The notes under the pieces: generated by a model
What the model was told of the DNA's origin: nothing
The model's input: the letters and a program-made list of their open reading frames with translations, nothing else
Database searches by the model: none
Virus record (IMG/VR): IMGVR_UViG_3300044846_001093
Span: 1 to 64,000 of that record
DNA length: 64,000 nt
Direction: 5' to 3' (one strand)
DNA from: a virus
Taxonomy: Duplodnaviria > Heunggongvirae > Uroviricota > Caudoviricetes
Part shown: positions 23-37,711 of the stretch, in pieces
How the letters are laid out: each line of letters begins with the position of its first letter
Position numbering within the stretch: position 1 is the stretch's first letter
Position numbers and translations under genes: made by a program

Positions 23-595
23 TTACAACAAAACGTCATCATTGTCAAGTGTCCATCCACGTTCCAGGAATTTCTGTTGCCTTTTCGCAACAGGCTCTCT
101 ACCACCAGGATTTTTTACCAATCTTTTCCTATCAATAACATCAAGTTGATTTTCCGAAATATAAAATACATTCTCAGCTAAATCCAAATATGGCAAGCAA
201 TGTATATAATCAAACTTTTTTCTTTCAGTGTAATAATCACCCAATGTAATTATTTGAAAGTCATTGATCAGTGTGATGGCATTTTCGGTAATTAGCGGTT
301 GTGAACTTTGTAGATTACCATACTTTGCAGCCACATCCATGATATAGTCAGAGTAGTCACAAATTATAATGTCGCGCAGGTATTGAATTTTTGCGGGATC
401 ACGGAGCCAGAAATCATAGTCTTTTGGCTCTTCTTTATGATATATTGAAGAGATACTAGAACCCGACAGAATGCAGTTATCGTGAATCATCCACCACAGC
501 GCCTCAGGCAACAAGTCCTTCTGTTTATAGAGCTTTTGTACTACATCGCCCTTCAAGCTAGTAGCAGTTTTATTCCAAGATGTATTAGTATTCAT
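23..595 (-). CDS. Nucleotidyltransferase-fold protein (minimal pol-beta-like NTase), 190 aa
   Basis: Complete ORF. Contains hG[GS]x9-13D.D signature (ILSGSSISS...KDYDFWL). Transcribed divergently from the early region. Confidence 0.45.
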   Translation of the reverse strand: MNTNTSWNKTATSLKGDVVQKLYKQKDLLPEALWWMIHDNCILSGSSISSIYHKEEPKDYDFWLRDPAKIQYLRDIIICDYSDYIMDVAAKYGNLQSSQPLITENAITLINDFQIITLGDYYTERKKFDYIHCLPYLDLAENVFYISENQLDVIDRKRLVKNPGGREPVAKRQQKFLERGWTLDNDDVLL

Positions 596-685
596 AAATT
601 ATTCTCAAGTACCGACACCGACGATTCTACGCACATTTCCACCAGTTGTCAAGTTGTTTTTTTGCAACATCAACATCTTTTACCT

Positions 686-714
686 ATTGACAATTACCGT
701 GAGTGTGGTATAAT
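686..714 (+). promoter_or_regulatory. Early sigma70-type promoter P1 (TTGACA-17-TATAAT, extended TG)
   Basis: tattgacaattaccgtgagtgtggtataatagagcc. Same cassette family as 11 others. Leader ccttagacagacagaaag then ATG. Confidence 0.7.
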
Positions 715-746
715 AGAGCCTTAGACAGACAGAAAGCGAGACTCTA

Positions 747-995
747 ATGCGAACCAAACAGTTGATCCGTGGCTTGAAAAATTCCCAACGTATCCGTGTG
801 ATCCTCAATAATGTAGCATTTTTTACTACAGCATCGGGGACTGACGATATCATGTATCGTAACCAGCGCCTCGCAGTTCAATTTGCACTGGAGCGCATGG
901 TTGCAGAAAAAATTACCGGACTCGCGACCACTGTTTCATGCTACAATGAAAAGATGGAATCCGAGCGTATCAATGTGCAAGTGGACTTAGTATGA
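747..995 (+). CDS. Hypothetical early protein, 82 aa
   Basis: First ORF after P1. Purine-rich leader acts as RBS. Confidence 0.5.
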   Translation: MRTKQLIRGLKNSQRIRVILNNVAFFTTASGTDDIMYRNQRLAVQFALERMVAEKITGLATTVSCYNEKMESERINVQVDLV

Positions 996-1153
996 CAAGA
1001 ATTCTTTTTTATCGCCTCCAAGCTCTGGAAGCCTTGCGCTGCACTTCAATGCAAGCCACCAAAATTGGTGATATTTGGTGCGAAGGTTGGATCAGCGAAG
1101 CGGACATGGAAACATTCCGACTGAATGGCTGGTGGTACGAAGTTCAGAAGTGA
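992..1153 (+). CDS. Hypothetical small early protein, 53 aa
   Basis: ATGA overlap with the upstream stop. Ends directly at the conserved TGAGTACTTT element preceding P2. Confidence 0.35.
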   Translation: MTRILFYRLQALEALRCTSMQATKIGDIWCEGWISEADMETFRLNGWWYEVQK

Positions 1154-1168
1154 GTACTTTTACTGTAC

Positions 1169-1196
1169 TTGACAATTACCTAGAACCTGGTATAAT
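1169..1196 (+). promoter_or_regulatory. Early promoter P2 (cassette family)
   Basis: acttgacaattacctagaacctggtataatagag. Confidence 0.75.
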
Positions 1197-1226
1197 AGAG
1201 ACTTAGAACGAAACGAAGGAATCAAA

Positions 1227-1394
1227 ATGGATATCACAACAGCAATCGCGCAAATCAACCAAGAAGCCGAACACTTGGGCTTGGGTCTTCTGGAAACATT
1301 GCAAGATATCCAAGAGCGTGGCGAGATGGTCTACAGTGACAAGACTATGCGCGCCTATCGCGTGTTCATGGCTCAAGGCGCTAAATTTTTCTAA
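1227..1394 (+). CDS. Hypothetical small early protein, 55 aa
   Basis: ATG 30 nt after the -10 with leader gaaacgaagga. Followed by AGGAG RBS of the next gene. Confidence 0.4.
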   Translation: MDITTAIAQINQEAEHLGLGLLETLQDIQERGEMVYSDKTMRAYRVFMAQGAKFF

Positions 1395-1403
1395 GGAGTA
1401 GTT

Positions 1404-1685
1404 ATGAAGCAAAATTACACAATGTACATCTACAAAACCGACCGCCGTTGCAAGACTGGCGAGCGTCTGTTCTCCACTACCGTGTGGACTGACCGTGATG
1501 ATGAAACCATGCGCCGCGAGTGCAACGACTTGTATGACCTGTACCCCGCAACAAAAGGCTGGCGCTTTGAGTGTCACCCAACCACAATTACCGTCAAAAG
1601 CTACATGACTGGCGAGGATGTCCAAATCGACCGCGACACACCATGGTGTTGTAATCCTGCGTCAGAATCTTTCTGGTCAATGTAA
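1404..1685 (+). CDS. Hypothetical early protein, 93 aa
   Basis: RBS ctaaggagtagttATG. Cys-rich (C..C...CC). Confidence 0.55.
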   Translation: MKQNYTMYIYKTDRRCKTGERLFSTTVWTDRDDETMRRECNDLYDLYPATKGWRFECHPTTITVKSYMTGEDVQIDRDTPWCCNPASESFWSM

Positions 1686-1692
1686 AAACCAC

Positions 1693-1720
1693 TTGACAAG
1701 TCTCCACCAATCTGTATAAT
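1693..1720 (+). promoter_or_regulatory. Early promoter P3 (TTGACA-16-TGTATAAT)
   Basis: acttgacaagtctccaccaatctgtataatagaacc. Confidence 0.65.
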
Positions 1721-1819
1721 AGAACCTATGAAACTGATCACTGAAATCTTCCAAGCCGCCATCATCGCCACTTTGATGTTTGGTCCTTTCTTTTATTACT
1801 TCCTTTTTATGATGAAACC

Positions 1820-1996
1820 ATGATCCGAGTTATTTTGGCCTGGGCGATCCTAAGCGCCCTCATTGCATTCTTGATTACCATGTTCAGAAGTTTGTCTGGT
1901 AAACAAAAATGGCAGTTGACAAAAGTTGTTGGCTATGCTACAATGTGTTCTCTTATCGCAGTAGCAATCCTTGTTGGTATTGTTGTACTCTTCTGA
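1820..1996 (+). CDS. Small hydrophobic membrane peptide, 58 aa
   Basis: ATGA overlap with an upstream 31-aa hydrophobic ORF (1728..1823). Strongly hydrophobic, TM-like. Confidence 0.3.
   Translation: MIRVILAWAILSALIAFLITMFRSLSGKQKWQLTKVVGYATMCSLIAVAILVGIVVLF
1916..1944 (+). promoter_or_regulatory. Weaker internal sigma70-like promoter (TTGACA-17-TGCTACAAT)
   Basis: agttgacaaaagttgttggctatgctacaatg, lying inside the 58-aa ORF. Confidence 0.35.
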
Positions 1997-2091
1997 GGTG
2001 ACATATGTTTCCTGATTTTCTTTTGCGACCCTTGTATTTCATCTTGGGTTTTCTTGTGTGCGCTAATCTTTTTCTTTATGGAGTTATCTAA

Positions 2092-2889
2092 ATGAATCGT
2101 TATCTAAAACTTGGCGTTATCGCCGGGGCTGTTGCTTTGACTTCCGCATGTACTCGGATTGAGACTGGTGAGGTCGGTGTTCGTGTCGGCTTTGATAAGC
2201 AGGTGCAGTCTGGTGAGTTGCTGCCCGGCTCGTTCAATCAGTCCATCGTTGGTACTATCCTGACATTCCCAGTCAAGGACGTAAACGTGGTCCTGGAGAA
2301 TATGACGCCCGTTGCAAAAGACAACAGCACAATGAAAGACTTGGACGCTGTGGTTGTTTACAACATCAATTCTGCACAGGTTGCAGAGTTGTATAGTACA
2401 AAGAACAAATCGTTCCATGCTGAATTCAAAGGCGACACCTATGTGATGTATAATTACATTGTGCAAAACGCACGGAATGCCATCTACAAATCCGCACGAA
2501 TGTATGAAGCATTGGACATGGCTGATAACCGTACGGAAATGGAAAACTATATCAAGGATGAAATTCAGCGAAACCTTGCTGAGGAAAAACTTGACGGTAG
2601 TATCACCATCTCTCAAGTCATGATTCGTAACGTATTGCCTAGCGATACTGTAGTAGAATCTGCGAATGCATTGGTTCGTAGCAAAAACGAATTGAAGCAA
2701 AAGGAAGTGGAAGTAAAAACTGCTGAGGCTGAAAGCCGTCGTATGGCTGCATTGGCTAACAACTCAGGTAGTTCCATTGCATTCATGCAAGCCCAAGCCA
2801 TGTTGAATATCTCCGAAGGTATCAAGAATGGTCAAGTGCAAACGATTGTGGTGCCATCCAACTTCAATGCCTTGATGATGGGTAAGTAA
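2092..2889 (+). CDS. SPFH/band-7 (stomatin/prohibitin-like) domain lipoprotein, 265 aa
   Basis: Signal peptide with Cys (ALTSAC). N-terminal GEVGVRVGF...LLPG...V pattern typical of SPFH domains. Coiled-coil C-terminal half. Confidence 0.5.
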   Translation: MNRYLKLGVIAGAVALTSACTRIETGEVGVRVGFDKQVQSGELLPGSFNQSIVGTILTFPVKDVNVVLENMTPVAKDNSTMKDLDAVVVYNINSAQVAELYSTKNKSFHAEFKGDTYVMYNYIVQNARNAIYKSARMYEALDMADNRTEMENYIKDEIQRNLAEEKLDGSITISQVMIRNVLPSDTVVESANALVRSKNELKQKEVEVKTAEAESRRMAALANNSGSSIAFMQAQAMLNISEGIKNGQVQTIVVPSNFNALMMGK

Positions 2890-2988
2890 ATGAGTGACAA
2901 GCCATCCTATTGTTGCCAACGATGTGGTGAAATGATCGGATGGCTTGGTCGTATTATGCCTTTTCATAAGTGTAAGAAAAATGAGTGA
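2890..2988 (+). CDS. Tiny zinc-ribbon-like peptide, 32 aa (CCQRCG...HKC)
   Basis: TAAATG junction with the upstream gene and ATGA overlap with the downstream gene. Cys/His spacing. Confidence 0.3.
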   Translation: MSDKPSYCCQRCGEMIGWLGRIMPFHKCKKNE

Positions 2989-3304
2989 ACTCAAAACATA
3001 CTATTATATTCCAAACATCTGGGAACGTGATGAATTGGATGTTGAACATGCATTAGCATTTCAATCAAGTCGTGATATTGTTGCAGTTAACTTTGGTCAC
3101 AAATATGATGACCTTGAGTTGGATTGGTTAGTTGAAGACATGGCTCAGGACTATATCTCCAATCGTGATGGTTGGGAAGTCGCAGAACATTGGCAAGGCC
3201 AAGAGCGTGAATTTGCAGTATGGGATTCCGATAAAACCTTTATTGGTAAATTTGACGTTCTGCTGGAGTATGAGCCACGATTTACTGCATGGAAGAAAAA
3301 ATGA
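2981..3304 (+). CDS. Hypothetical early protein, ~107 aa
   Basis: Start taken at MSELK (ATGA overlap). Acidic, Trp-rich. Confidence 0.45.
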   Translation: MSELKTYYYIPNIWERDELDVEHALAFQSSRDIVAVNFGHKYDDLELDWLVEDMAQDYISNRDGWEVAEHWQGQEREFAVWDSDKTFIGKFDVLLEYEPRFTAWKKK

Positions 3305-3516
3305 ACGAACGAATCCAAGAATTCATCCTGCAAGCAACAGAGACAACTGATGTGTATAATCCTGATACGGGTATCACACATTACCGTGAATTCTTTGACC
3401 ACGAAAAGTTTGCCGAGTTGATTATCAAAGAGACTTTACAAGTTGCCAAAGCTGGCGTTGAGTTTGGTCCCAGTATGGAAAAAGCAGTTTACACATATTT
3501 CGGAGTTGAAGAATGA
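3301..3516 (+). CDS. MNERI/HFGVEE paralog family member 1, 71 aa
   Basis: MNERIQEF...EKFAELIIKE...YFGVEE. ATGA overlaps on both sides. Confidence 0.6.
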   Translation: MNERIQEFILQATETTDVYNPDTGITHYREFFDHEKFAELIIKETLQVAKAGVEFGPSMEKAVYTYFGVEE

Positions 3517-3788
3517 ACGAACGAATTAAACAACTTGCTGAACAGGCTACTACTATTGTAGATATGGTTGGTCCACAAGGCTATACCAGCAGCTATGCTA
3601 ACTTTGATCGAGAAAAGTTTGCCGAGTTGATTGTTAGGGAATGCATGAAAGAATCGATGGATGAGATTGTTGCTGATGAAGACATTGCTCAAGAAAACGA
3701 TCCTCTAATTAGAGAATATCTCAATGGCAATAATCAAGGCATCGTTGATGCGGTTGTTAGATTTAGAAATCATTTTGGAGTAAAGTAA
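3513..3788 (+). CDS. MNERI/HFGVEE paralog family member 2, 91 aa
   Basis: MNERIKQLAEQAT...EKFAELIVRECMK...NHFGVK. Confidence 0.6.
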   Translation: MNERIKQLAEQATTIVDMVGPQGYTSSYANFDREKFAELIVRECMKESMDEIVADEDIAQENDPLIREYLNGNNQGIVDAVVRFRNHFGVK

Positions 3789-3952
3789 TGTGGAATAAAT
3801 TCAAATCATTGCCGTTGTCTGTGCAGATATCAATCGGATTCATATTGTGTTTGGTGACCATTGCTATTATAGCATTTCCTCCAGCAGGAATTGTCCTTGG
3901 AACAATTGCGGCTATTTTTCGCATCTTCTATTATTTGACTGAGGGTAAGTAA
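3788..3952 (+). CDS. Small membrane peptide, 54 aa
   Basis: TAATG junction. Two hydrophobic segments. Confidence 0.3.
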   Translation: MWNKFKSLPLSVQISIGFILCLVTIAIIAFPPAGIVLGTIAAIFRIFYYLTEGK

Positions 3953-4170
3953 TGGCTAAAAGAAAAGAAGCTAAGAAGTTTATGTACGGCGTAGGCTTCT
4001 ATTGGGAAGGCGATAGTGGTCACGTAGGACTGTATGCTTCTGGCAGTGAAGTGTTCTATGGTACAATGGAAGAAGCTAAGAACTTCCAAGCATACTGTCA
4101 GCGCCACCAACGCTTGGGTGAAGATAAACGCGAGTATAAGATATTCCAACTTATCGAGGTACCAGAGTGA
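3952..4170 (+). CDS. Hypothetical early protein, 72 aa
   Basis: TAATG junction. Lys/Glu-rich. Confidence 0.5.
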   Translation: MAKRKEAKKFMYGVGFYWEGDSGHVGLYASGSEVFYGTMEEAKNFQAYCQRHQRLGEDKREYKIFQLIEVPE

Positions 4171-4182
4171 AAGAAATCAACA

Positions 4183-4377
4183 ATGAACGATAAAGAAAAT
4201 ATCAAAGCCGGTGCAGACATAAACGCGGGCGATGGTGGTTACAGTGTAGGCACTCAGGAAGCATATGAGGAGTTTGTCAAACTGCGAAACGAAGCCATAG
4301 CACTAGCCAAGAAAGAAGGTATCAAAGAACGCCATTATACCAACTCTGGTAAACCGATTGACTTTCCAGAAAAGTAA
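4183..4377 (+). CDS. Hypothetical early protein, 64 aa
   Basis: RBS-like gaaagaaatcaacaATG. Confidence 0.45.
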   Translation: MNDKENIKAGADINAGDGGYSVGTQEAYEEFVKLRNEAIALAKKEGIKERHYTNSGKPIDFPEK

Positions 4378-4418
4378 TACTTTAGTCTTACACCAAGTTT
4401 AGTCAGGTATTGGTTGAC
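4378..4418 (+). repeat. 41-nt perfect direct repeat (copy A), immediately 5' of promoter P5
   Basis: tactttagtcttacaccaagtttagtcaggtattggttgac, identical to 8776..8816. Confidence 0.8.
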
Positions 4419-4441
4419 AATTACCGAAAACCTGGTATAAT
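4414..4441 (+). promoter_or_regulatory. Early promoter P5 (cassette family)
   Basis: ggttgacaattaccgaaaacctggtataatagagcc. Confidence 0.75.
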
Positions 4442-4470
4442 AGAGCCATAGACAGTAAGAAAGACAAATC

Positions 4471-4659
4471 ATGGCCTTTGAATCAAAAATCCTCTCCCTC
4501 GTTGCTAAAGTCACCACTGATGCAGAATTCACCTGTGGTACTTTGTTTGTGACTTGCACTCCACGCGAAGCCGCACGAATCCAAACAATCTTGGAAAATC
4601 CCGCTTACGGTGTGATTGTCTCTCCAGTTGGTGATCAATTTGCTTTTGACTTTGTTTGA
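4471..4659 (+). CDS. Hypothetical early protein, 62 aa
   Basis: First ORF after P5. Confidence 0.5.
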   Translation: MAFESKILSLVAKVTTDAEFTCGTLFVTCTPREAARIQTILENPAYGVIVSPVGDQFAFDFV

Positions 4660-4773
4660 TAGGAGTTTTTATGTTTGAATTTTTAATCGTTGTTTTTGTT
4701 GTGTTGGTCTTGGTTGGCGGTGCTGTTAGTGGCTCCGTTGAGACCTTAGGTTAATCTTTTCTTTGGAGTTACC

Positions 4774-5070
4774 ATGAAAATCGCACGAACCATTCTTGAT
4801 CAAATCGGACAGTTGGACCCATGGGCCTTGGGTGCATGGGGTGCAGTAGACCTCACCGATATGGGTGATGGCTTACAATTCAAGACCACAGGTATGACAC
4901 CATTCAAGGGCTTTGTGTATATCCAATACAAGCCATGCCCTGACCTGTATAACGTGAAGTTTATCCAAGTCCGTAACGTAAAAGGCGTTCCTACAGTGAA
5001 AGTCCGCAAGATAGTGGTGGACGTGTATGCTGAGGACTTGATCCGCACGATTGATGAATTCGTAGGATGA
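4774..5070 (+). CDS. Hypothetical early protein, 98 aa
   Basis: RBS ggagttaccATG. Confidence 0.55.
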   Translation: MKIARTILDQIGQLDPWALGAWGAVDLTDMGDGLQFKTTGMTPFKGFVYIQYKPCPDLYNVKFIQVRNVKGVPTVKVRKIVVDVYAEDLIRTIDEFVG

Positions 5071-5074
5071 TATT

Positions 5075-5278
5075 ATGAAACTGAATAAATTTATTGAACA
5101 ATTGCAAAAACTCCAATCTGAGGGTCATGGCGATAAGGAAGTTTTCTATCGTCATGGTGCCTCTGGTGATTGTGGTAAACTGTCCTCAGCATTCATTACC
5201 GATGAAGTAGATGGTGATTGTGGACCATTTGACCTGGACGAAGGTGAAGAGTATGTTTCCATCTACGCAGGAAATTGA
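5075..5278 (+). CDS. Hypothetical early protein, 67 aa (acidic)
   Basis: Tightly packed after the upstream gene. Confidence 0.5.
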   Translation: MKLNKFIEQLQKLQSEGHGDKEVFYRHGASGDCGKLSSAFITDEVDGDCGPFDLDEGEEYVSIYAGN

Positions 5279-5293
5279 GTACTTTCCACTGAC

Positions 5294-5321
5294 TTGACAA
5301 TTACCTAGAACCTGGTATAAT
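5294..5321 (+). promoter_or_regulatory. Early promoter P6 (cassette family)
   Basis: gacttgacaattacctagaacctggtataatagagac. Confidence 0.75.
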
Positions 5322-5346
5322 AGAGACTTAGACAGAAAGATTCCAA

Positions 5347-5571
5347 ATGACCAAACAATTCATCCAAGTCAGTGCCCACAAAGACAGCAATAACTTTGCC
5401 CACTGGAGCAACCTGAGTATCATGGCAAGCATGGGTCTGACCGCTGAACAGGCCCTGCGCCGTTTGCAAGCCATGGCTGATAACTATGCCGAGAACGGTT
5501 ATACCATTGAGTGGATCCGTGAGGATTTTGATGCCGCTTACGAAGAAATGTATGGAGAGTTGTTTGTATGA
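5347..5571 (+). CDS. Hypothetical early protein, 74 aa
   Basis: First ORF after P6. Confidence 0.5.
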   Translation: MTKQFIQVSAHKDSNNFAHWSNLSIMASMGLTAEQALRRLQAMADNYAENGYTIEWIREDFDAAYEEMYGELFV

Positions 5572-5774
5572 CAAAAGTATACACTGTTGAGTTCCATGAC
5601 AAGACTATGGACTACCGTCTGGTGCGATGGACTACCATTAGCCCAGGTATTCGCTCGGGTGAAGATATAGAACGGTTTGACTCCGAAGACGAAGCTATGG
5701 ACGCGGCCGACTGGATGAACGCGGGTGAAGAGTGGGACCTGTACCACCAGTGTGAGTGTGAATTTGATAATTGA
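5568..5774 (+). CDS. Hypothetical early protein, 68 aa
   Basis: ATGA overlap. Confidence 0.5.
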   Translation: MTKVYTVEFHDKTMDYRLVRWTTISPGIRSGEDIERFDSEDEAMDAADWMNAGEEWDLYHQCECEFDN

Positions 5775-5789
5775 GTACTTTTACTATAC

Positions 5790-5817
5790 TTGACAATTAC
5801 CTGAAACCTGGTATAAT
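5790..5817 (+). promoter_or_regulatory. Early promoter P7 (cassette family)
   Basis: tacttgacaattacctgaaacctggtataatagaacc. Confidence 0.75.
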
Positions 5818-5844
5818 AGAACCATACCAGACAGAAAGACACCA

Positions 5845-6003
5845 ATGAGAACCTACCAAGCCTTCTACAAAAACCGCGTTATCACCGTGACTGCATCCAC
5901 CTCTTATGAGGCGCAGTTGAAAGCCGCAGCCGTGTTCAAAGCACGTAAGTCCTATGATGTTGCTATCGTGTTGGCTGATACACCTGTGGTTATGGTAGAC
6001 TGA
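5845..6003 (+). CDS. Hypothetical small early protein, 52 aa
   Basis: ATG 28 nt after the -10. Followed by a 38-aa hydrophobic ORF (6006..6122). Confidence 0.4.
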   Translation: MRTYQAFYKNRVITVTASTSYEAQLKAAAVFKARKSYDVAIVLADTPVVMVD

Positions 6004-6128
6004 TCATGTTTGACTTTATACTGGCCTTGATACAGGCCGTTTTGATTTTCCTGATCGTATCTTTATGGGTGATGTTTGCGATCATACCTATAGTCTACCA
6101 TCTTGTGAAATTAGTACTTTAGACTGAC

Positions 6129-6156
6129 TTGACAATTACCTAGAATCTGGTATAAT
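6129..6156 (+). promoter_or_regulatory. Early promoter P8 (cassette family)
   Basis: gacttgacaattacctagaatctggtataatagaacc. Confidence 0.75.
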
Positions 6157-6184
6157 AGAACCATACACCAGAGAAGGAAAGAAC

Positions 6185-6421
6185 ATGTACACAACAATTT
6201 GGTCAGGTCGCAATGTCCGTGCTGCATTGACAGTAAAGGTGCTCCAAGAGTCACCAGCAGCTATCAAATTCGTAGTAGCGGATAATGAAAAAGCTACCTT
6301 TTGGTTGCCAAAGAAAGCCTTGAAAATGGTGGATGAATGCTATGACTTAGCATTTTGGTTCACAAAAGGTGAGTATCTGGCCAGTCTGTTCAACCGTTAC
6401 GCTAATCACTATAAGGCTTGA
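6185..6421 (+). CDS. Hypothetical early protein, 78 aa
   Basis: First ORF after P8. Confidence 0.5.
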   Translation: MYTTIWSGRNVRAALTVKVLQESPAAIKFVVADNEKATFWLPKKALKMVDECYDLAFWFTKGEYLASLFNRYANHYKA

Positions 6422-6514
6422 TATGAGCAAACGAACTGGCTTGATCATATGGGCCGTTACAGCCCTTGCGTTTCATGTTGCGGCATTCTCATTGGCTTAT
6501 TTGGGATTACTGAA

Positions 6515-6781
6515 ATGAATGAACGAATTAAAGAACTTGCCAAAGAGGCTGCAAGAGAAATGAACGAAACTGGGACTTATTCAGAACCCAAATTTCAGGA
6601 AAAGTTCGCCGAGTTGATTGTTCAGGAATGTACCGCGGCATTATTTGATGAATCGGAAAGATTGTCTGGATTGTATTCGGACGAAGACAATTGGGACTCG
6701 GCTGAGGAATATGAAATTCGTTCAAATCAATGTATTGATGACATAGCATTGATTGAAAAACATTTCGGAGTTGAAGAATGA
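6515..6781 (+). CDS. MNERI/HFGVEE paralog family member 3, 88 aa
   Basis: MNERIKELAKEAA...EKFAELIVQECTA...KHFGVEE. The track ORF 6449..6781 carries a spurious N-terminal extension. Confidence 0.6.
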   Translation: MNERIKELAKEAAREMNETGTYSEPKFQEKFAELIVQECTAALFDESERLSGLYSDEDNWDSAEEYEIRSNQCIDDIALIEKHFGVEE

Positions 6782-7008
6782 ACCAAGTTTTAGTAAACCT
6801 GCTGTCTAATCGAGCAGTAAGATTGGGTGAGCACTCTTGGCAATGGGCTGAGAAAAAGACTGGCAATCCTTCCTTGAAAAATTCTGTGACTTCTCGTATG
6901 TTTCGATCCAATCTTGTAGAAGTGGTCGGTGCAGAAATGAAACTTACTGCTATGGGCCGTATAGTAGCAGAACAACTTATCGGAGTTGAGGAATGTTTAA
7001 GAAGCTAA
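6778..7008 (+). CDS. Hypothetical early protein, 76 aa
   Basis: ATGA overlap. C-terminus ...LIGVEECLRS echoes the family C-terminus. Confidence 0.45.
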   Translation: MNQVLVNLLSNRAVRLGEHSWQWAEKKTGNPSLKNSVTSRMFRSNLVEVVGAEMKLTAMGRIVAEQLIGVEECLRS

Positions 7009-7223
7009 TTGACATATTCAAAGAGCCCGAGCATGGCATAGTGAAGTTGAGTTTCATTGCCCTGGACGAGAATGGAGAACCCTATGAGGATATTGCAACA
7101 ATGCCATATCATACACAATACATTCAAAGTGATGTGGAAGCAAAGTTTGTGGCATTCATGAGTTTACGGAATCACCGAGTTGTTGAAATCACAATACTAG
7201 AAGTAATTAAAACAAGTGGATAA
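6993..7223 (+). CDS. Hypothetical early protein, 76 aa
   Basis: Overlaps upstream gene by 16 nt. Confidence 0.45.
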   Translation: MFKKLIDIFKEPEHGIVKLSFIALDENGEPYEDIATMPYHTQYIQSDVEAKFVAFMSLRNHRVVEITILEVIKTSG

Positions 7224-7227
7224 TATA

Positions 7228-7774: not shown

Positions 7775-7789
7775 GTACTTTTACTGTAC

Positions 7790-7817: not shown

Positions 7818-7823
7818 AGAGTC

Positions 7824-30307: not shown

Positions 30308-30864
30308 TAGCTATTTGCAAATACTGCGTTTTCGGCGTCTGCAACACCACCAGTACCGATGCTGCTCATAGCAACAAGAGTCTCAGTGTGTTCACGACCA
30401 ACACGACCACCCATGGTGATTGTGATTGCTACGTTAGAGTTTGGCACTGCGCCAATTGTCGGTGCAGCCAAGTAGTTGCCGCCAGTTGTCAGTGTGATAC
30501 CAGTGATCAACTTTGCACCGTTTGTAACGATTTGTGCGTTAGCGGATGTATTGCCTGTACCACCACCAGAGAATGTGATGTACAAATTACCATCAGGTGA
30601 GTATGAACTTGCGTTCGCTGAGATAGTTGCAACAGGACCTGTGCCTTGCTTTACAACAACCCAACCAGCGTGTGCGCCTTTTGGATTTGCAGCAACGCGC
30701 TGTTCGGTGGTATCAACACCGAAGATACCCACAGCTTGCTTATCAGTAAATACACCGATAGTTGTGTTACCGAACAATGTTGCTCCGGTTGCATTTTTAG
30801 TAGCTGCAACGCCTGCATGTTTTGGTGCTGCGTTGCTTGAATCTGATCTTGACCATAGTGCCAT
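30307..30864 (-). CDS. Gly/Thr/Ala-rich beta-type protein, probable virion component, 185 aa
   Basis: Low-charge G/T/A/N-rich sequence. RBS aaaaggagtcATAAATG. Near-consensus late promoter upstream. Confidence 0.45.
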   Translation of the reverse strand: MALWSRSDSSNAAPKHAGVAATKNATGATLFGNTTIGVFTDKQAVGIFGVDTTEQRVAANPKGAHAGWVVVKQGTGPVATISANASSYSPDGNLYITFSGGGTGNTSANAQIVTNGAKLITGITLTTGGNYLAAPTIGAVPNSNVAITITMGGRVGREHTETLVAMSSIGTGGVADAENAVFANS

Positions 30865-30887: not shown

Positions 30888-30895
30888 TATTTATG
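30888..30895 (-). promoter_or_regulatory. Near-consensus late promoter (CATAAATA)
   Basis: Same 23-nt geometry to ATG as the consensus late promoter at 44012. One mismatch to TATAAATA. Confidence 0.25.
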
Positions 30896-32876
30896 TTTTG
30901 ATAATCTGTGATGAAAGCTCAGGTTCAGCTTGAAATGTATCAGCTTTCTCTTTGCTAGATGACTTAGAATTCTTAGCCAAATCTTTTACGATGCCAGCAG
31001 TCTTAGATAGTGATCGTCTTGCTGGTGTGCTAGTCTTTTCATAAGAATCTTCTGGCTCCTGCTCTTCCTTTAGCCCTGCTTGTTTACGTGCAGCAGTCTT
31101 CGCAAGATGCTTGACTCTAGACATTGCTGTGTGTTTTGCACCAGATTTGTCTGTTGTCACTTTCTTTGTGTTTTTGACATAAGGACCATCAAATGGAACT
31201 TCTTGGCGCTCTTTACCCAAGTCTGTTGCAGTTTGTTCAGCAGTAATGATAGGTGTTGGCTTCATAGGCTTCTTAGCTGGTCCAGATGTGAAACGACCTG
31301 CGTCTGGATTCTCGTTGGAGTTGCTAGTTTGACCAACTTCTTCCGCCACAACACTCTCAGCTTTGTACTTCTTAAACATATCAGTACCTTTTCTTGGCGC
31401 AAGACCTTGTGTGCGATATGCAGCAGCAGAAACAGCAGCGTATCGTTTCGTCTTCTTACTCGCTTCAGCGTTCGTGCCAGCACCTGGCAACTCTCTTGCG
31501 CTGTCCATTGCTTTATTGACATAAGAGCCAAGAGTTTTCTTAGACAACTCATCAATCTGCTCAACTTCTTCCTTCATATCATGTTTCTTCTTGAGATACT
31601 TTTCAACCTTGCGATCATATTCGCCTTTAGGTGATTTAGGTGTGCTGGTCTTCGCTTTGTCTAGAATTCTTTTATGTGCAGGATCAACTTCTTCCTTCAT
31701 CCCTGTACGGCGAGACTCACCTTCAATGTATGAGTGTAGAGATTCAACATCACTTTGAACTTTAGATAGTTTGTTCTGATACCACTCTTCAATTTCACCA
31801 CCCATCTCAATGAACTCAAGAATTTCTTCAGCAGCATACTTGATGAAATGCAGTTGCGTTTGAGCCATCTCAGTCTTTTCTGTGGTATCCGATTCAGCTT
31901 GCTCATTGATTTCAGCTTGTTTCAAAATACCTTTGACCAATGGTGCCTTCAATTGGCGATGACGCGGTACTGGAATGTGATGCTTTGCATCTGGATGTGT
32001 GTATACATCATGACTGCCTGATGTACGTGAGAGTTTCCAACCACGCTTCTTCAGATGTTGATGCACAGCACGGGTATCCATGTTAGCACCAGGCATTTCT
32101 TCTAGTTGTTCAACTTCCTCATGCTTCAATGTTCTCATTCCCGGATCAATGTTGCCTTTATTATCATAACGATGCTGAACACCTTTCTTACCTTGAGCTT
32201 CTAAATCTTTCATAGCCTTATTAGCGTCTGGATAGTTTGAATGTGTGCTAGTTTTGATCCAGTCACCTTTAGAATTTCTGTGACCTACGTGAATTGTTTC
32301 TTCCGTCACAACTTCAACAGACTCATCCCACTGCTTACCACGTGCCGCATTTCTAGCCGCAGCTTTTGCACCATAGTTCTGTTGTAGCCTCTCAGCATCA
32401 TACTTGTGTACTGTGGCGCCTTTAACCTTCTTTGCCACGTTCTCTGCATGAGACTTGGTTTCAAATGTCTTCCAGTGACGACCATTGACATGCACCGAGT
32501 GATAGTCTTTGGCATCAGCTTCGGCTAGTTCAACTTCCTCATTAGTCTGTGAGTTTTTCAAATCTTTCTCGGATGGTGCACCCTCTGAGCCAGGCTTACG
32601 CATACGTTCACCTGAGCCGCTCTTGATTCTTTCACGCTTGGCATGAATGTTGGCCCACAGACCAGCTTCTTCAATGGTTTCTTCTTTGACGGATTTGCCA
32701 GCCGATTTATCACCATAAGTTGCTTGACGTTTTTTAGCAAGGTCGATCTTATCTTTGACAGCTTTTCCTAACTTAGGATCAGCCTTCAACATCCATCCTG
32801 TTCCAAGAGACTTTTTACCCTCTTCCAAAATGTCCTCGCCGCGGACAAGACTTGCAATCTGCTTGAAACTTCTCAT
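30891..32876 (-). CDS. Large Lys-rich protein with embedded HicA/YcfA-like domain, 661 aa
   Basis: HQHLKKRGWKLSRTSGSHDVYTHPDAKHHIPVPRHRQLKAPLVKGILKQA matches the HicA fold consensus. Carries one EEVEQIDELSKKTLGSYVNKA module. Otherwise predicted disordered and K/E-rich. Confidence 0.55.
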   Translation of the reverse strand: MRSFKQIASLVRGEDILEEGKKSLGTGWMLKADPKLGKAVKDKIDLAKKRQATYGDKSAGKSVKEETIEEAGLWANIHAKRERIKSGSGERMRKPGSEGAPSEKDLKNSQTNEEVELAEADAKDYHSVHVNGRHWKTFETKSHAENVAKKVKGATVHKYDAERLQQNYGAKAAARNAARGKQWDESVEVVTEETIHVGHRNSKGDWIKTSTHSNYPDANKAMKDLEAQGKKGVQHRYDNKGNIDPGMRTLKHEEVEQLEEMPGANMDTRAVHQHLKKRGWKLSRTSGSHDVYTHPDAKHHIPVPRHRQLKAPLVKGILKQAEINEQAESDTTEKTEMAQTQLHFIKYAAEEILEFIEMGGEIEEWYQNKLSKVQSDVESLHSYIEGESRRTGMKEEVDPAHKRILDKAKTSTPKSPKGEYDRKVEKYLKKKHDMKEEVEQIDELSKKTLGSYVNKAMDSARELPGAGTNAEASKKTKRYAAVSAAAYRTQGLAPRKGTDMFKKYKAESVVAEEVGQTSNSNENPDAGRFTSGPAKKPMKPTPIITAEQTATDLGKERQEVPFDGPYVKNTKKVTTDKSGAKHTAMSRVKHLAKTAARKQAGLKEEQEPEDSYEKTSTPARRSLSKTAGIVKDLAKNSKSSSKEKADTFQAEPELSSQIIKT

Positions 32877-34226: not shown

Positions 34227-34874
34227 TTAAATTTTCACAATAGTTAATATTGCACTTGGTAATGCAGGTCTTGCATATGGAGTAGTTTGCGCTGCTGTAT
34301 ATTCTAATTTCATAAGGTCGATTCTACTAACAGCAAATTTCAATTCCAGATAATCGTCCGCAGCGATACCGTCCACTAACCATTGCTTACTGATGTATTC
34401 ATACACTGGAGTTTCTACACTACCTTGTCTAACTTCTATTTTGACCGCAGATTCTGCTACGTTATTATTGTTTTTTGCCAACCACAAAAACACATCACGT
34501 GGTGCGTTGCCAGTAGTTTTAACCAGCATTTCCACTGTTATCAAATAATTGCCTGCAGAACTGAAAGTCACTTGAGTGGGCTGACCTGATGTTACAGTGA
34601 CACCCTGCGTATTGACATGGGCTGTTGTATTATTAAACCAGTCAAATGAAAATGCTGCGTTGGCTTCCGTTGCTACTACATCTGCTACTTTGTGAAAGCA
34701 ACCAAATACTGGATTACTTTCACCAAGTGATAGTCCACCAGCAGTAGAACCATCTGACATTCTTAATGAAGTAGTTGTTGGATCATAAAAAATCTCACCT
34801 TCATTACCAATATAATCAGATGCTTGGCGACCGCCCATCTTGTCGGCAGTTAATTTGAATGTTTTGTTAGCCAT
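34227..34874 (-). CDS. Beta-rich globular protein, possible virion/fibre-associated, 215 aa
   Basis: Non-repetitive, low-charge sequence unlike neighbours. TAAATG junction with the downstream gene. Confidence 0.45.
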   Translation of the reverse strand: MANKTFKLTADKMGGRQASDYIGNEGEIFYDPTTTSLRMSDGSTAGGLSLGESNPVFGCFHKVADVVATEANAAFSFDWFNNTTAHVNTQGVTVTSGQPTQVTFSSAGNYLITVEMLVKTTGNAPRDVFLWLAKNNNNVAESAVKIEVRQGSVETPVYEYISKQWLVDGIAADDYLELKFAVSRIDLMKLEYTAAQTTPYARPALPSAILTIVKI

Positions 34875-35252
34875 TTAGCAATTCCATTTTCTTAGTGCGA
34901 GAGCTTTACGAGACGGCTCTCCGTTAGGTTTCTTCATCGGACCTTCCACTCCACCCATTCTAGCGCAGAATGACTTGCGACGGTTAGCAGCTTTACTGCC
35001 TGGTGTCAATTTTGATGGTGGTGTTGTGACTGGTGCTTTTAGATTGCCGCCATCTTTTCTGTTGTAGTAGTCACGGCCCTTTTGAGTTAGACCACCAGTA
35101 GAACTCTTCAGTCCTTTGGCATCAACTGCGGCTTCCACTACAGTTTCTTCTTTGACACAAGAATCGGGTGAGTATGCTTTCTTACCTGGAACAGGCTTGT
35201 ATTTTGACCAGCAACGACCGGCTTCATTGATAAAATCTGTAAATTTTTTCAT
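34875..35252 (-). CDS. Basic Lys/Pro/Gly-rich protein, 125 aa
   Basis: ATGA overlap with the 820-aa gene. Confidence 0.4.
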   Translation of the reverse strand: MKKFTDFINEAGRCWSKYKPVPGKKAYSPDSCVKEETVVEAAVDAKGLKSSTGGLTQKGRDYYNRKDGGNLKAPVTTPPSKLTPGSKAANRRKSFCARMGGVEGPMKKPNGEPSRKALALRKWNC

Positions 35253-37711
35253 AAGTAGTTCTTTGCTTTAAATGTGCTTAGTGATATGCCCTGTTTAGCA
35301 AGTTCATCCTGTTTCTGTGCACCAATTGATGCTGTGGTTGAATCGCCACCCATTTCAGCAACTGGCTTCTTCTTCAAAGGATTCACTTTGCCACTCTTGT
35401 CATTGATCTCACCCATGTCGCGGCCGATGCTTTCGCCACCAGCCGCCATTGACATGCCAACTTCTACGCCTTTGTCGATGGCTTCTTTGAATGAGCTTTT
35501 GGCTTGCGAGAGGGTGAGCTTGCCTTTATAGCGGCTGGCTTCTTGGATGTTTTTGGAGCTGGCTTTGGCTCCTGTACTACCACTGATGCTTCTACCTTCG
35601 GTAATGGTTGTGGCTCCGGTAATACTACTGGCTCTGGTACTACCACTGGTGCTTCCACCTTCGGTAATGGTTGTGGCTCTGGTTCCACTGGTGGTTTGCT
35701 CTTCACAAAGAAACTTTTCAGAAATTTCAACATTTACATTCTCCTTCAATTTGACTATGTAACCTTTGTCTGTCTTGACCACTTCACCACCTTTGGTGTG
35801 TGCGTCTTTAGCAGCATTGTTTCGTATTGCATATACTTTAGGCTTATTGCCAGATGCAATATATGTAGCTCCGTCTTTTACGACTGTTCTTTCACCACTA
35901 ATACTTTCAGAGACAAACATAGGCTTGCCGAGCGTGAGAAGATTGTATGCACCAGAATCGGACATTACTATCTGATCCACGTGCTCTTCAACTTCTTGCT
36001 CCTCAGCATCTCCATTGCCTGTCATCATCTGTATTGTTTTTTGCAATTCTTCTGGAGTATCAGCTTTGAAAGTGACTGAAACAGCTTCAAAAAGATTCTG
36101 GAAATCTTCATTGATAGACTCTTTGACTGGTTTCTTGCGCGTGGGCTTCTGGCTACTAGCTCCACTCATAGGAACTTCAGCAGTCTTCTTGATCATCTTT
36201 TGCTGTTCAGTGTGTGTTGGATCCTGCACCAAAGTTCCATGAACTGAGTGATGCGTGACTTTACCATTCTTGCCGTATCTGCCATAGCCATAGTATTGAA
36301 GACCAAGGCGTCTAGCTTCATCAGTTGCTTTGTTTTCACCCTCAGCGGAGTGTGGAAGAGACTGTTCTGTGCCTTTCTTAGGAATAGGCAGTGTGTCTTT
36401 CTTCTGTAGTTCACCAGCAACCCATGCTTTAGCTTGTTCGTTCTTAGGTGGTGCTTGCACAAACTTTTGAACAGTCTTGAAGACTTTATCCATTTCCTCT
36501 TTTTTGGCTTTGACAACTTCTGGTGGTGCATTGCGCAAGTCTTCGGAGTTATCAAATTCAACATAACTGTTGCCAAACAGTTTAGCCATATCTGGGCGTG
36601 AATTGTGTACTGCGTCCCACTTTTCTTTACGAATGTTCTCGGGAACTGTACGACCACCTCTTTGCCCACGTTCAACGTTTCTCTGTGCAGAAACTTCATC
36701 TTGTGTGACAACTGCGACCATAGAAGTTTCGTAGCCAATCTCTTCTAGGTTCTTCTTTATCTTAGCATACTTTGCAGGATCATCGCCTGTGCCATTGATA
36801 ATGATACCGTTACGACCTAACAGCGCCAGCTTTTGCTTTAACTCTGTCATGTCTTTTGCTTTACCGCGAACAAGGGTTCGTGCGTCAGCTTCAGTCTCTG
36901 GCATTTTCTTGTCCAGATTGTTCTTATCCATCAGGAACTCAAGTGCTTTGTCTGAGTTGATTTCAATCAATCCATGACCAGCGAGTGTGTTATCCAGCAC
37001 ATAGTCTTTGCCTGAGCCTGGACCACCAGATAGAAACACAGCCTTGAAAATGCCTTTATCGTGGACACCTTCAGATAGAATCATCTGAATTTGTGATCGG
37101 AAGTCTTCTTTGACTTGCATTCCCTTACGCACATCGCTATACAATTCTTTAGCGTGTTCTGGTGCTACGTGACTTGGAATGCCTTTTTTAAATTCTTTGA
37201 AGTTGCCTTTTGATGCATGACTGCGCATCTTGGATGCAGACATACCAGATACGCCCTCAGCATCAGGATCGCGTTCACCAGCGGAGTGTACGTGAATACC
37301 ACGGAACTTGAAGTATCCATGCGTACCTTTTACGCCATTGTATTTGTGTAATATCTTTTCGTACTCACCAGTTCTATCGGAGCCTGCAACCATGTGCAAG
37401 TGTGTAGCGCCAGCTTTGTGGAGTTTTGATGCTTGAGCCAGAAAGTTTGGATGTTCTTTACTGGAGGTTGTGATATTCGTGTCAGGAAAATATCGTTGTG
37501 CGTGTTTGACTTTTTGCTCACCTGAGAGTGGATTCTTCTCAGCGTCCTGTGAATGCGATAGAACAACGTGGTGTGTTCCCTTCACAGATTTAGCAACATC
37601 TTTGACTTTATCAACCAGTTTTGCATGACCGGTTGTTGGTGGATTCATGCGGCCGAAAGCAAGGACCGCATGTTTTTCTGTTGTTTCTTCTAGATATTCT
37701 ATAAACTTCAT
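35249..37711 (-). CDS. Multidomain protein: N-terminal NadM-like NMN adenylyltransferase (HxGH NTase) + P-loop kinase + long Lys/Ser/Thr-rich disordered tail, 820 aa
   Basis: FGRMNPPTTGH matches NadM/NadR GRFxPxHxGH. SGMSASKMR matches ISGTxIR. Walker A LSGGPGSGKDY, and IINGTGDD. C-terminal TTITEGxSxSGST repeats. Confidence 0.55.
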   Translation of the reverse strand: MKFIEYLEETTEKHAVLAFGRMNPPTTGHAKLVDKVKDVAKSVKGTHHVVLSHSQDAEKNPLSGEQKVKHAQRYFPDTNITTSSKEHPNFLAQASKLHKAGATHLHMVAGSDRTGEYEKILHKYNGVKGTHGYFKFRGIHVHSAGERDPDAEGVSGMSASKMRSHASKGNFKEFKKGIPSHVAPEHAKELYSDVRKGMQVKEDFRSQIQMILSEGVHDKGIFKAVFLSGGPGSGKDYVLDNTLAGHGLIEINSDKALEFLMDKNNLDKKMPETEADARTLVRGKAKDMTELKQKLALLGRNGIIINGTGDDPAKYAKIKKNLEEIGYETSMVAVVTQDEVSAQRNVERGQRGGRTVPENIRKEKWDAVHNSRPDMAKLFGNSYVEFDNSEDLRNAPPEVVKAKKEEMDKVFKTVQKFVQAPPKNEQAKAWVAGELQKKDTLPIPKKGTEQSLPHSAEGENKATDEARRLGLQYYGYGRYGKNGKVTHHSVHGTLVQDPTHTEQQKMIKKTAEVPMSGASSQKPTRKKPVKESINEDFQNLFEAVSVTFKADTPEELQKTIQMMTGNGDAEEQEVEEHVDQIVMSDSGAYNLLTLGKPMFVSESISGERTVVKDGATYIASGNKPKVYAIRNNAAKDAHTKGGEVVKTDKGYIVKLKENVNVEISEKFLCEEQTTSGTRATTITEGGSTSGSTRASSITGATTITEGRSISGSTGAKASSKNIQEASRYKGKLTLSQAKSSFKEAIDKGVEVGMSMAAGGESIGRDMGEINDKSGKVNPLKKKPVAEMGGDSTTASIGAQKQDELAKQGISLSTFKAKNYL
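35567..35704 (-). repeat. Imperfect in-frame tandem repeat (~45-nt unit, about 2.5 copies) inside the 820-aa gene
   Basis: ggctc[ct]ggtactaccactg[ag]tgcttc[tc]accttcggtaatggttgt repeated. Encodes TTITEG.S.SGST units. Confidence 0.6.

Follow-up and report, generated by a model that had tools for sequence, protein, structure and literature searches.

Do the genes with which a phage might act on its host form one dedicated arsenal? The question is raised by the 64,000-nt DNA stretch spanning positions 1 to 64,000 of IMG/VR record IMGVR_UViG_3300044846_001093 (the window). An earlier note had read positions 23-37711 as a single counter-immunity repertoire, split between a diversifying early region and a block of lysine-rich injected effectors. 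We favor, with fair confidence, a different account, in which the window holds two separate things: a T4-style early region and a late block encoding head cargo that is packaged, processed by a protease and co-injected. The early and late regions differ in strand and in temporal class and have housekeeping genes between them, so a single arsenal is not justified; they are two unrelated units. One 37-kb arsenal was ruled out by the housekeeping and lysis genes at 11-29 kb, and the late block runs on to ~43988, past the end of the proposed unit.

The window is part of the genome of an uncultured aquatic/marine T4-type (Kyanoviridae-like) myovirus, an assignment based on polymerase identity, gene order and metagenomic relatives. 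Its family B DNA polymerase was 50-51% identical to the polymerases of T4-like Synechococcus myophages. The gene order, from pol through UvsX, gp41 helicase, two hypothetical genes, a 'cytidyltransferase' and large hypothetical genes to an 'S-layer-like' protein, was that of Pelagibacter phage HTVC008M and Methylophilales phage Melnitz (both Kyanoviridae). Metagenomic contigs of up to 111 kb carried exact copies of window proteins, and close relatives were found on contigs of 160-174 kb. Near-identity DNA searches of the early and late regions against 50,697 phage records gave no match, and scans for tRNAs and Rfam families found nothing. Genes at 0.7-11 kb were on the plus strand and those from ~11.3 kb onward on the minus strand; a change in the sign of the GC skew agreed with this switch near 11 kb.

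N-terminal tags in the late block

The late block covered ~29.9-44.0 kb of the minus strand. It was syntenic in divergent relatives (contigs of 162-169 kb) and with the corresponding blocks of HTVC008M and Melnitz. Its features are listed from right to left, with lengths in amino acids (aa), isoelectric points (pI), lysine content (K) and N-termini that resemble a T4 capsid-targeting sequence (CTS).

44012..44019, minus strand: T4-type late promoter TATAAATA, 31 nt ahead of the gene that opens the block
43206..43988, minus strand: 260-aa basic protein (pI 9.6), first gene of the block, no CTS (phrog_13937)
41977..43209, minus strand: DUF6267 protein, 410 aa, beginning MKFKEFLTEA (codons 43177-43209; Pfam DUF6267 1e-109, phrog_455)
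41397..41702, minus strand: lysine-rich protein, 101 aa, 16.8% K, beginning MQSFKELVKEA (read from the sequence)
37766..41380, minus strand: sugar-modification cassette of five genes (GT2, HtrL_YibB-like, Methyltransf_24 and two unassigned), inside the late block
35249..37711, minus strand: 820-aa nucleotidyltransferase-kinase protein, beginning MKFIEYLEET (phrog_3041, Zeta_toxin/AAA_33; ortholog of T4-GC190)
34875..35252, minus strand: DUF6321 protein, 125 aa, pI 10, CTS of canonical spacing MKKFTDFINEA, one EETVVE linker
34227..34874, minus strand: 215-aa protein with a tail-fibre/virion-type N-terminus (phrog_36222), absent here in relatives L005 and L007
32878..34209, minus strand: 443-aa lysine-rich modular protein with five EEVEQ[LIV]xE-type linkers
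30891..32876, minus strand: 661-aa lysine-rich modular polyprotein with four linkers and a HicA module
30307..30864, minus strand: 185-aa G/T/A-rich protein, resembling in position and N-terminus the 'S-layer domain' protein of HTVC008M and Melnitz
29945..30307, minus strand: 120-aa acidic protein (pI 4.05), beginning MNFKEFITES, with an identical N-terminus in relative L005

The late-promoter sequence TATAAATA occurred five times on the minus strand and not at all on the plus strand; upstream of the 820-aa gene, only the degenerate form CTAAATAG was found. The apparent Melnitz counterpart of the 260-aa protein, matched by position in the syntenic block only, begins MQGFKTFLSEA.

In T4 (NC_000866), internal proteins IPII and IPIII begin MKTYQEFIAEA and IPI begins MKTFKEFTS...ITEA. 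Propeptides of such internal proteins span 10-19 aa. The capsid-targeting sequence of IPIII comprises its first ten residues, of which 4 and 7 target the protein and 8 and 10 steer the gp21 prohead protease, which cuts after (L/I)-x-E (PMC9026906; Mullaney & Black 1996, also reviewed in PMC3012670). The N-termini of the DUF6267 (MKFKEFLTEA), 101-aa (MQSFKELVKEA), 820-aa (MKFIEYLEET), DUF6321 (MKKFTDFINEA) and 120-aa (MNFKEFITES) proteins follow this pattern, either exactly or with one residue deleted. A strict regular expression for the tag matched 5 of the 110 open reading frames (ORFs) of the window, all within 29.9-43.2 kb, with ~0.02 N-terminal matches expected; the core motif occurred twice elsewhere in 19,158 aa. 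Residues M1, F3, E5, F6, T8 and E9 of the DUF6267 tag were invariant in 19 homologs, and the tag residues were likewise invariant in an alignment of 15 nucleotidyltransferase-kinase homologs. Cytidylyltransferases of cultured Kyanoviridae carry comparable N-termini (P-TIM68, MKSFTSFFTEA; S-SSM7, KSFGQFLTEA; S-CREM2, MKNFSSFLTEA; Melnitz, MKKFSEIIEA). With a slash marking the cut, the candidate protease sites at the tags of the window are LTE/A, INE/A, LEE/T, ITE/S and VKE/A, and the propeptide of the S-CREM2 capsid protein contains LLTE/A, resembling the tags.

The tags are like those of T4 IPI, IPII and IPIII in being ~10 aa long, aromatic at positions 4 and 7 and aliphatic at 8, with Glu at 10 and a small residue next; in both cases the proteins are basic, the phage is T4-type with a gp21-type protease, and the cargo varies while the tag is kept. 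They differ in that the window cargo shares no homology with the T4 internal proteins and is of large size (the enzymes have 410 and 820 aa, and the polyproteins consist of several modules and contain internal linker sites), that some window tags are one residue short (F at positions 3 and 6), and that packaging and cleavage of the window cargo are predicted. Searches of literature outside subscription journals found no earlier description of a cyanophage capsid-targeting sequence or of HicA in T4-like virions, and the recognition of the T4 tag on Kyanoviridae-type cargo proteins appears to be new.

Modular polyproteins and the nucleotidyltransferase-kinase protein

The earlier note had described lysine-rich large proteins in this block, and the composition of the 661-, 443- and 820-aa proteins agreed (13.5%, 18.7% and 11.5% K, respectively; pI 9.1-9.7). 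The modules of the polyproteins are joined by a stereotyped linker, for which a logo from 94 sites read (V/M/T)(K/N)EEVEQ(L/I)(D/E)E. Nine EEV-type linkers were found in 1,229 aa of lysine-rich proteins, versus two partial ones in the other ~17,900 aa. The linker EEVEQ[LIV]xE ends in [LIV]-x-E, which fits a gp21-type prohead-protease site.

At least 1,292 homologs of the 661-aa protein, named YcfA/HicA by JGI, were found. Insertions and deletions of ≥15 aa between close homologs were mostly of whole modules, with edges on linker repeats (ESV/EV, MKEEV...MKEEV, VAE...VAE). In distant homologs, the same modules were reordered behind tag-like N-termini (MKTFGELASS, MKKFKELSNI, MKRFSDFLEG, MKKFTIFQED), and the C-terminus PEPELSSQI(V/I)K was kept. 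Marine podoviruses also had single modules as small ORFs of their own (phrog_16028 among others), with up to 82% identity. A PDB sequence search with the 661-aa protein returned nothing. In the linker DNA, at least seven repeats were 73-92% identical over 24-26 nt, and a 90-nt unit (linker plus LSKKTLGSYVxKA) was present in three copies; such repeated DNA provides a substrate for recombination. The polyprotein architecture, with stereotyped linkers doubling as putative cut and recombination sites, appears to be new.

At 30891-30940 (minus strand) and in homologs P0002-P0116, it was observed that all HicA-family polyproteins end in F(Q/E)(A/P)EPELSSQI(V/I)K(T/V), whatever their modules. By analogy with T4 Alt, which is processed at both ends, this conserved C-terminus may be a second targeting or processing signal.

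An embedded HicA RNase domain had also been claimed, and the profile search bore this out: HicA_toxin (PF07927) matched aa 271-323 of the 661-aa protein with 48.3 bits, against a cut-off of 27, and phrog_353 ('toxin') matched as well. The histidine of the GSH motif, present in the module, aligned with H24, the mutated catalytic residue of B. pseudomallei HicA (4c26). The module (nt 31902-32096, aa 261-325) lies between QLEE/M and INE/Q, and cuts at these two sites would free 65 aa, the size of a free HicA toxin. Its core R[ST]SG[SG]HDV[YF]TH, catalytic His included, was kept in 25 of 26 homologs. The upstream boundary read (Q/L)L[DE]E/MPGANM in 22 of 25; one homolog had IEE/MAGANM, and one begins inside the module. 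The downstream boundary was [IV]-x-E in the sequences inspected. Among homologs, the position of the module ranged from aa 19 to aa 492. The module thus shares with HicAB type II toxin-antitoxin systems a HicA_toxin domain above threshold, the GSH histidine and a predicted freed size of ~65 aa, but it sits inside phage polyproteins of 360-825 aa, in a late virion-type operon, with no HicB partner. A HicA RNase as a mobile cargo module appears to be new.

The 820-aa protein consists of a HIGH-type nucleotidyltransferase (nt 37097-37687, aa 9-205; phrog_3041, 5e-66, cytidylyltransferase-type), a P-loop Zeta/AAA_33 kinase (nt 36404-37045, aa 223-436; Zeta_toxin, 49.5 bits versus 22.3) and conserved C-terminal regions. 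HTVC008M encodes the kinase separately, in an ORF upstream of the nucleotidyltransferase. The motifs GRMNPPTTGH and GMSASKMR were invariant in the homolog alignment; they are common to the whole HIGH superfamily and are not diagnostic within it. The earlier note had named the protein a NadM-like nicotinamide mononucleotide adenylyltransferase (NMNAT) fused to a kinase. The fusion of a HIGH-type nucleotidyltransferase to a kinase stood, and the NadM/NMNAT label did not: TIGR01526 scored 17.4 bits against a cut-off of 341 and PF01467 17.9 against 21, and membership in the NadM/NadR NMNAT families was rejected on these profile scores. The protein resembles NadR and NadM in its G-R-x-x-P-x-(H/T)-x-G-H and S-x-S-x-x-R signatures and, as in NadR, joins an adenylyltransferase to a P-loop kinase; it differs in profile scores far under the cut-offs, in a best fold match to phosphopantetheine adenylyltransferase (PPAT), in a Walker A motif reading GKD and in the lack of a NamPT partner.

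The pairing of the two domains suggests, by analogy, a two-step reaction in which a small molecule would be phosphorylated and then adenylylated. Known precedents are NadR, which converts nicotinamide riboside to nicotinamide mononucleotide and then to NAD, and CoA synthase, which combines PPAT with dephospho-CoA kinase. NadR-like synthesis of NAD from nicotinamide riboside is one candidate, and a choice between it and a CoA-synthase-type reaction is not possible; the NAD+ replenishment proposed in the earlier note is one of several possible activities of the pair. Phage enzymes of NAD salvage are known from KVP40 (NadV/NatV). No NamPT or other nicotinamide-salvage enzyme was recognized among the annotated window proteins. 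In the C-terminal part of the 820-aa protein, positions 35566-35691 (minus strand) encode an S/T/G-rich tandem repeat (TSGSTRASSITGATTITEGRS-like, period 18-27 nt) whose length varied among homologs.

For DUF6267, the single profile phrog_455 (764 positions) covers both this domain and the cytidylyltransferase, which suggests that the two are fused in some phages. PDB sequence searches with the single sequence and with a profile gave nothing usable. The DUF6267 motifs TKWDGAP, LQGDMMF, PEGFVAVD and AVKL(I/V)DR have a loose likeness to motifs I, III, IV and V of ligases and capping enzymes, interrupted by a long helical insertion. The idea of a KxDG ligase-like enzyme was reduced to a lead, the structure prediction being too poor.

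Probable packaging and injection, and possible functions

Detection of such proteins in virions comes from related phages. T4-GC190, a 'citidylyltransferase' and cyanophage core protein, was detected by mass spectrometry in purified S-SM1 virions (Sullivan et al. 2010, PMC3037559); the cytidylyltransferase gene of S-SSM7 is T4-GC190. The nucleotidyltransferase domain of the 820-aa protein gave tblastn matches of 1e-26 to 1e-40 and was 33.5% identical to S-CREM2 gp154, which is flagged as a virion protein in its GenBank record. The S-CREM2 virion proteome comprises 52 proteins, cytidylyltransferase ORF154 among them, and its table also lists ORFs at the coordinates of gp155, gp156 and gp160; its authors noted that kinases and cytidyltransferases are frequent in cyanophage virion proteomes and may enter the host (PMC10665884). 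S-CREM2 gp160 was found to be lysine-rich, and its Cys motifs resemble, by eye, modules of the HicA polyproteins. The window protein shares with T4-GC190 a homologous nucleotidyltransferase domain, the same neighborhood after gp41 and the same N-terminal tag. It differs in its fusion to a Zeta/AAA_33 kinase and a long C-terminal extension, and the two proteome papers (PMC3037559, PMC10665884) describe neither a targeting tag nor linker processing.

By analogy with these virion proteins and with the T4 internal proteins, the late-block proteins are probably head-packaged cargo that is injected with the DNA. The idea of injected effectors in the earlier note is therefore retained for the late block, where T4-like tags, protease-site linkers, the promoter TATAAATA and ortholog detection in virions (PMC3037559, PMC10665884) point the same way. 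What is observed are the motifs with their enrichment and conservation, the exchange of modules at linkers, the domain assignments and the finding of orthologs in virions of other phages; we infer packaging, cleavage and injection in the window phage, as well as every biochemical activity named here, and propose the following sequence of events. Late transcription would yield tagged precursors, which the T4-like tag (M-K-x-[FY]-x-x-[FY]-[LIF]-x-E-[AST]) would dock in the prohead core. A gp21-type prohead protease would remove the tag after [LIV]-x-E and would also cut the EEVEQ[LIV]xE linkers in the lysine-rich proteins. The head would then hold small basic peptides on the DNA together with the 65-aa HicA RNase, the nucleotidyltransferase-kinase and DUF6267. 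Ejected with the genome, this cargo would act within the first seconds, ahead of phage gene expression, and HicA would cleave host mRNA. The absence of an antitoxin would be explained if HicA is locked in the precursor until capsid maturation. The repeated linker DNA would also serve as a recombination site, shuffling modules among phages.

A more tentative extension takes the late polyproteins as cassette arrays of dozens of interchangeable mini-modules, loaded by means of the tag, in which the linker is both cut and recombination site and the products are strain-specific injected effectors, some of them anti-defence. As part of the same claim, and put forward just as tentatively, HicA would be inactive in the precursor, the prohead protease would free and activate the modules inside the capsid, and each virion would inject its cocktail before any gene expression.

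Precedents for processed and ejected proteins exist in another lineage. The inner-body and ejection proteins of phiKZ and SPN3US are likewise cut at many x-x-E sites and ejected into the host (PMC5694885, PMC7411985, PMC10052503), but they have no sequence similarity to the window proteins, in which small modules alternate with a stereotyped, repeated linker and are exchanged between genomes. T4 internal proteins are the textbook case of proteins co-injected with DNA; hardly any of the repertoire is known from phages other than the T-evens. Polyvalent proteins of phages and conjugative elements (Iyer et al. 2017) are reportedly multi-domain proteins thought to travel with DNA and to act on arrival; the window modules differ from them in being mostly tiny basic peptides with protease-site linkers, not strings of large enzymatic domains.

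Several observations weigh against packaged and processed cargo, or against the activities assigned to it. Virion detection concerns orthologs in other phages only (S-SM1 and S-CREM2), and the authors of the S-CREM2 study themselves raise the possibility that mass spectrometry picked up abundant proteins that had co-purified (PMC10665884). The tag expression was refined after the sequences had been seen. Tags are weak on the 661-aa (MRSFKQIASLV), 443-aa (MFNDKILKSVAEA) and 260-aa proteins, and the prohead protease gene lies outside the window, although one is encoded by relatives (S-CREM2 gp143). Pfam and PHROGs scans of the neighboring genes gave no HicB-like antitoxin that could keep HicA harmless in the cell that makes it. 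The AlphaFold model of the 820-aa protein was of moderate quality (pLDDT ~80 in the nucleotidyltransferase domain) and its Foldseek matches were generic: the sole nucleotidyltransferase in the top 50 was PPAT (4nah, E 1.3e-4), and the kinase part matched adenylate and UMP-CMP kinases, polynucleotide kinases and zeta toxin, so that a substrate cannot be assigned. Its Walker A motif, GGPGSGKD (aa 229-236), has Asp for the usual Ser/Thr of GK[ST], which makes kinase activity uncertain; this Asp was invariant in 15 homologs of the clade, the HTVC008M kinase having GKT, and may indicate altered metal binding or a non-kinase role. The AlphaFold model of DUF6267, built with 19 close homologs, had a pLDDT of 52 (<50 in the putative catalytic half). 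Finally, nothing ties any component to a specific defence system.

That both regions nevertheless form a dedicated counter-immunity arsenal, with NAD+ restored against Thoeris, DSR or other SIR2-type systems, HicA directed at defence mRNAs and the early paralogs acting as inhibitors, we consider unlikely. Injected T4 IPI* is a proven anti-restriction protein (PMC3012670), the GRMNPPTTGH and SASKMR motifs resemble those of NMNAT/NadR, the kinase fusion recalls the NMNAT and ribosylnicotinamide-kinase of NadR, and the early paralogs are small, mosaic and very diverse, like many anti-defence proteins. However, the NMNAT profiles lie far under threshold and the best structural match of the N-terminal domain is PPAT. 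Nicotinamide made by NADases could not be recycled, because no NamPT or ADP-ribose-based salvage partner was found among the annotated window proteins. That the cytidylyltransferase belongs to the core genes of cyanophages points to a general role, not one specific to defence, and the paralogs tested, together with 20 early ORFs (the latter against PHROGs only), matched no known anti-defence family. An anti-defence function of the late cargo or of the early region is treated here as a hypothesis.

Somewhat less probable still is a purely physical or structural role of packaged proteins, in which lysine-rich modules neutralize or organize head DNA or aid ejection and the enzyme domains are passengers or relics. 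Such a role would fit the lysine-rich composition and pI of 9-10, the short, low-complexity and interchangeable nature of many modules, and the ~1,000 molecules of basic internal proteins embedded in the DNA of T4 heads (PMC3012670). Against it, the nucleotidyltransferase, which is core in cyanomyoviruses, has invariant HIGH and SxSxxR motifs, and 25 of 26 homologs keep the catalytic residues of HicA; the conservation of active sites in HicA and the nucleotidyltransferase argues for enzymatic function.

Least probable, and very improbable in our judgment, is that the proteins are cytoplasmic late or middle proteins (nucleoid-binding, nucleotide metabolism) whose motif is a feature of translation initiation or folding, as the position directly after the replication genes pol, UvsX and gp41, the frequency of MK at positions 1-2 of well-expressed genes and the warning of carry-over in CsCl preparations (PMC10665884) would allow, since the full motif (aromatics at 4 and 7, aliphatic at 8, Glu at 10) matches the experimentally defined T4 tag and is confined to the late block, an ortholog was detected in two independent virion proteomes, the linkers match the protease site and a late promoter opens the block.

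For head cargo, the account preferred here, the description 'previously undescribed' in the earlier note was overstated. Published work already covers the virion cytidylyltransferases and kinases of T4-like cyanophages as well as the internal-protein paradigm of T4: T4-type tag-directed internal proteins have been known since the 1990s and virion cytidylyltransferases of cyanomyoviruses since 2010, and packaging of this gene set has already been suggested in print. Should this reading of tags and linkers be right, sequence data would suffice to recognize injected cargo in thousands of marine T4-like genomes; the families concerned number at least 1,292 (HicA-type polyprotein), at least 4,868 (nucleotidyltransferase-kinase) and at least 8,000 members (DUF6267). 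It would also account for the place of a 'cytidylyltransferase' among the core virion proteins of cyanomyoviruses, would mean that a HicA toxin is delivered as a processed capsid passenger, and would make linker-mediated cassette exchange a mechanism for fast turnover of injected effectors.

The early region and the middle of the window

The 0.7-11 kb region is an ordinary, very clean T4-style early or 'hyperplastic' region of mostly orphan genes. Its features, and the gene to its left, are the following.

687..10765, plus strand: 11 near-identical consensus sigma-70 promoters (TTGACAATTACC-N-TGGTATAAT; repeat families D1-D3, regex scan)
2092..2889, plus strand: SPFH/Band_7 lipoprotein, 265 aa (Pfam Band_7; phrog_200 'lipoprotein')
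2890..2988, plus strand: zinc-ribbon-like peptide, 32 aa, named for its CxxC...HxC motif
3301..3516, plus strand: paralog 1, 71 aa (MNERI...EKFAELIV...HFGVEE family)
3513..3788, plus strand: paralog 2, 91 aa (exact protein on 19 metagenomic contigs)
6515..6781, plus strand: paralog 3, 88 aa (MNERI...EKFAELIV...HFGVEE family)
7228..7449, plus strand: paralog 4, 73 aa (same family)
9703..9981, plus strand: paralog 5, 92 aa (same family)
10196..10480, plus strand: paralog 6, 94 aa (same family)
23..595, minus strand: 190-aa protein with a GS-x13-DYD motif (phrog_18122 and phrog_4400, both of function unknown)

The promoters had the form TTGACAATTACC-N5-6-cTGGTATAAT, with -35 elements starting at 687, 1169, 1693, 4414, 5294, 5790, 6129, 7790, 8315, 8812 and 10738. 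All 11 were on the plus strand, with a perfect -35, an extended -10 and a spacing of 16-17 bp. Downstream of them lay ~45 small plus-strand ORFs (30-110 aa), many translationally coupled. These promoters, being consensus for the host sigma-70, would fire on phage entry and give ~45 tiny, mostly orphan proteins, for which host take-over, exclusion and anti-defence are possible roles. PHROG scans of 20 further early ORFs outside the paralog family gave two marginal matches only.

The six-copy diversifying paralog family of the earlier note was recovered, and 'diversifying' is a fair term for it. The six copies, 35-40% identical overall, have in common the boxes MNERIKxLAEQA, a central EKFAELIVxEC and a C-terminal HFGVEE, and their halves are variable. 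The HFGVEE box doubles as Shine-Dalgarno sequence and overlapping start of the next gene (GGAGTTGAAGAATG; repeat families D7 and D8), so its conservation is partly at the nucleic-acid level. A profile of the six matched 5,488 cluster representatives at E≤1e-3, 353 of them at E≤1e-10, and the 150 matches listed were mostly stand-alone proteins of 67-118 aa. Sampled members combined the N-terminal half of one window copy with an unrelated C-terminal half, or the reverse, which indicates that the halves recombine at the central box. No significant PHROGs or Pfam match was found for paralogs 2-6, and none in Pfam, the sole database scanned, for paralog 1. The family is real, widespread, mosaic and functionally blank. 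Separately, the gene at 20193-20486 (minus strand), adjoining the gene for the ribonucleotide reductase (RNR) small subunit, may be a distant seventh paralog (21% identity, with the LQELAKDAG and FG termini kept).

Three further early genes had been singled out in the earlier note, two of which were found as described. The SPFH lipoprotein matched Band_7 well above the cut-off (E=6.5e-17, 62.6 bits versus 23.6) and phrog_200, has an N-terminus (MNRYLKLGVIAGAVALTSAC) with a signal and a lipobox-like LTSAC, and had homologs in 197 phage records. The zinc-ribbon peptide was present as a 32-aa ORF recognized by its CxxC...HxC motif, with no family match. The supposed nucleotidyltransferase at 23-595 fared less well: it is on the strand opposite to the early operons and is not part of them, and it had no Pfam or NCBIfam match, even at E≤1. 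Its GS...DYD motif and its distant Bacillus-phage homologs, one of them annotated as nucleotidyl transferase, make a pol-beta-type nucleotidyltransferase possible.

After the consensus early promoter at 7790-7817, positions 7825-8300 (plus strand) form ~480 nt without a credible ORF. This segment had a minimum free energy of -161.5, versus -133.6 ± 6.0 for shuffled sequences (z = -4.69), contained a perfect hairpin of ~20 bp and had no Rfam match; the corresponding gap was ~280 nt in the near-identical metagenomic strains L012 and L013, versus ~630 nt here. It is a candidate for an early structured noncoding RNA or an indel element. A structured RNA driven by the promoter at 10738 was rejected, with a fold z-score of merely -1.45.

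The sugar-modification cassette at 37766-41380 is not part of the cargo set. Its GC content was lower (0.39), and relatives L005 and L007 had a different cassette in the same place (epimerase, methyltransferases, LacAB_rpiB, HAD hydrolase); it looks like a swappable glycan-modification locus.

Between the early region and the late block, family matches at 11-29 kb supported a SegE-type GIY-YIG endonuclease, an epimerase, a DEDD exoribonuclease, a cupin, the large and small subunits of RNR and a secreted staphylococcal nuclease homolog; an apparent primase and an endolysin-spanin cassette were recognized by sequence features and synteny, with no family match. The SegE-type homing endonuclease (11261-11671, minus strand; PF19835, 5e-30) lies at the boundary between the early region and the minus-strand genes. 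The label 'NAD synthetase' of its best PHROG, phrog_447, looks like an annotation error that could mislead readings based on NAD. The staphylococcal nuclease homolog (21755-22192, minus strand) lies between the two RNR subunit genes, an arrangement also found in relative L007, and is probably exported because it has an N-terminal signal peptide.

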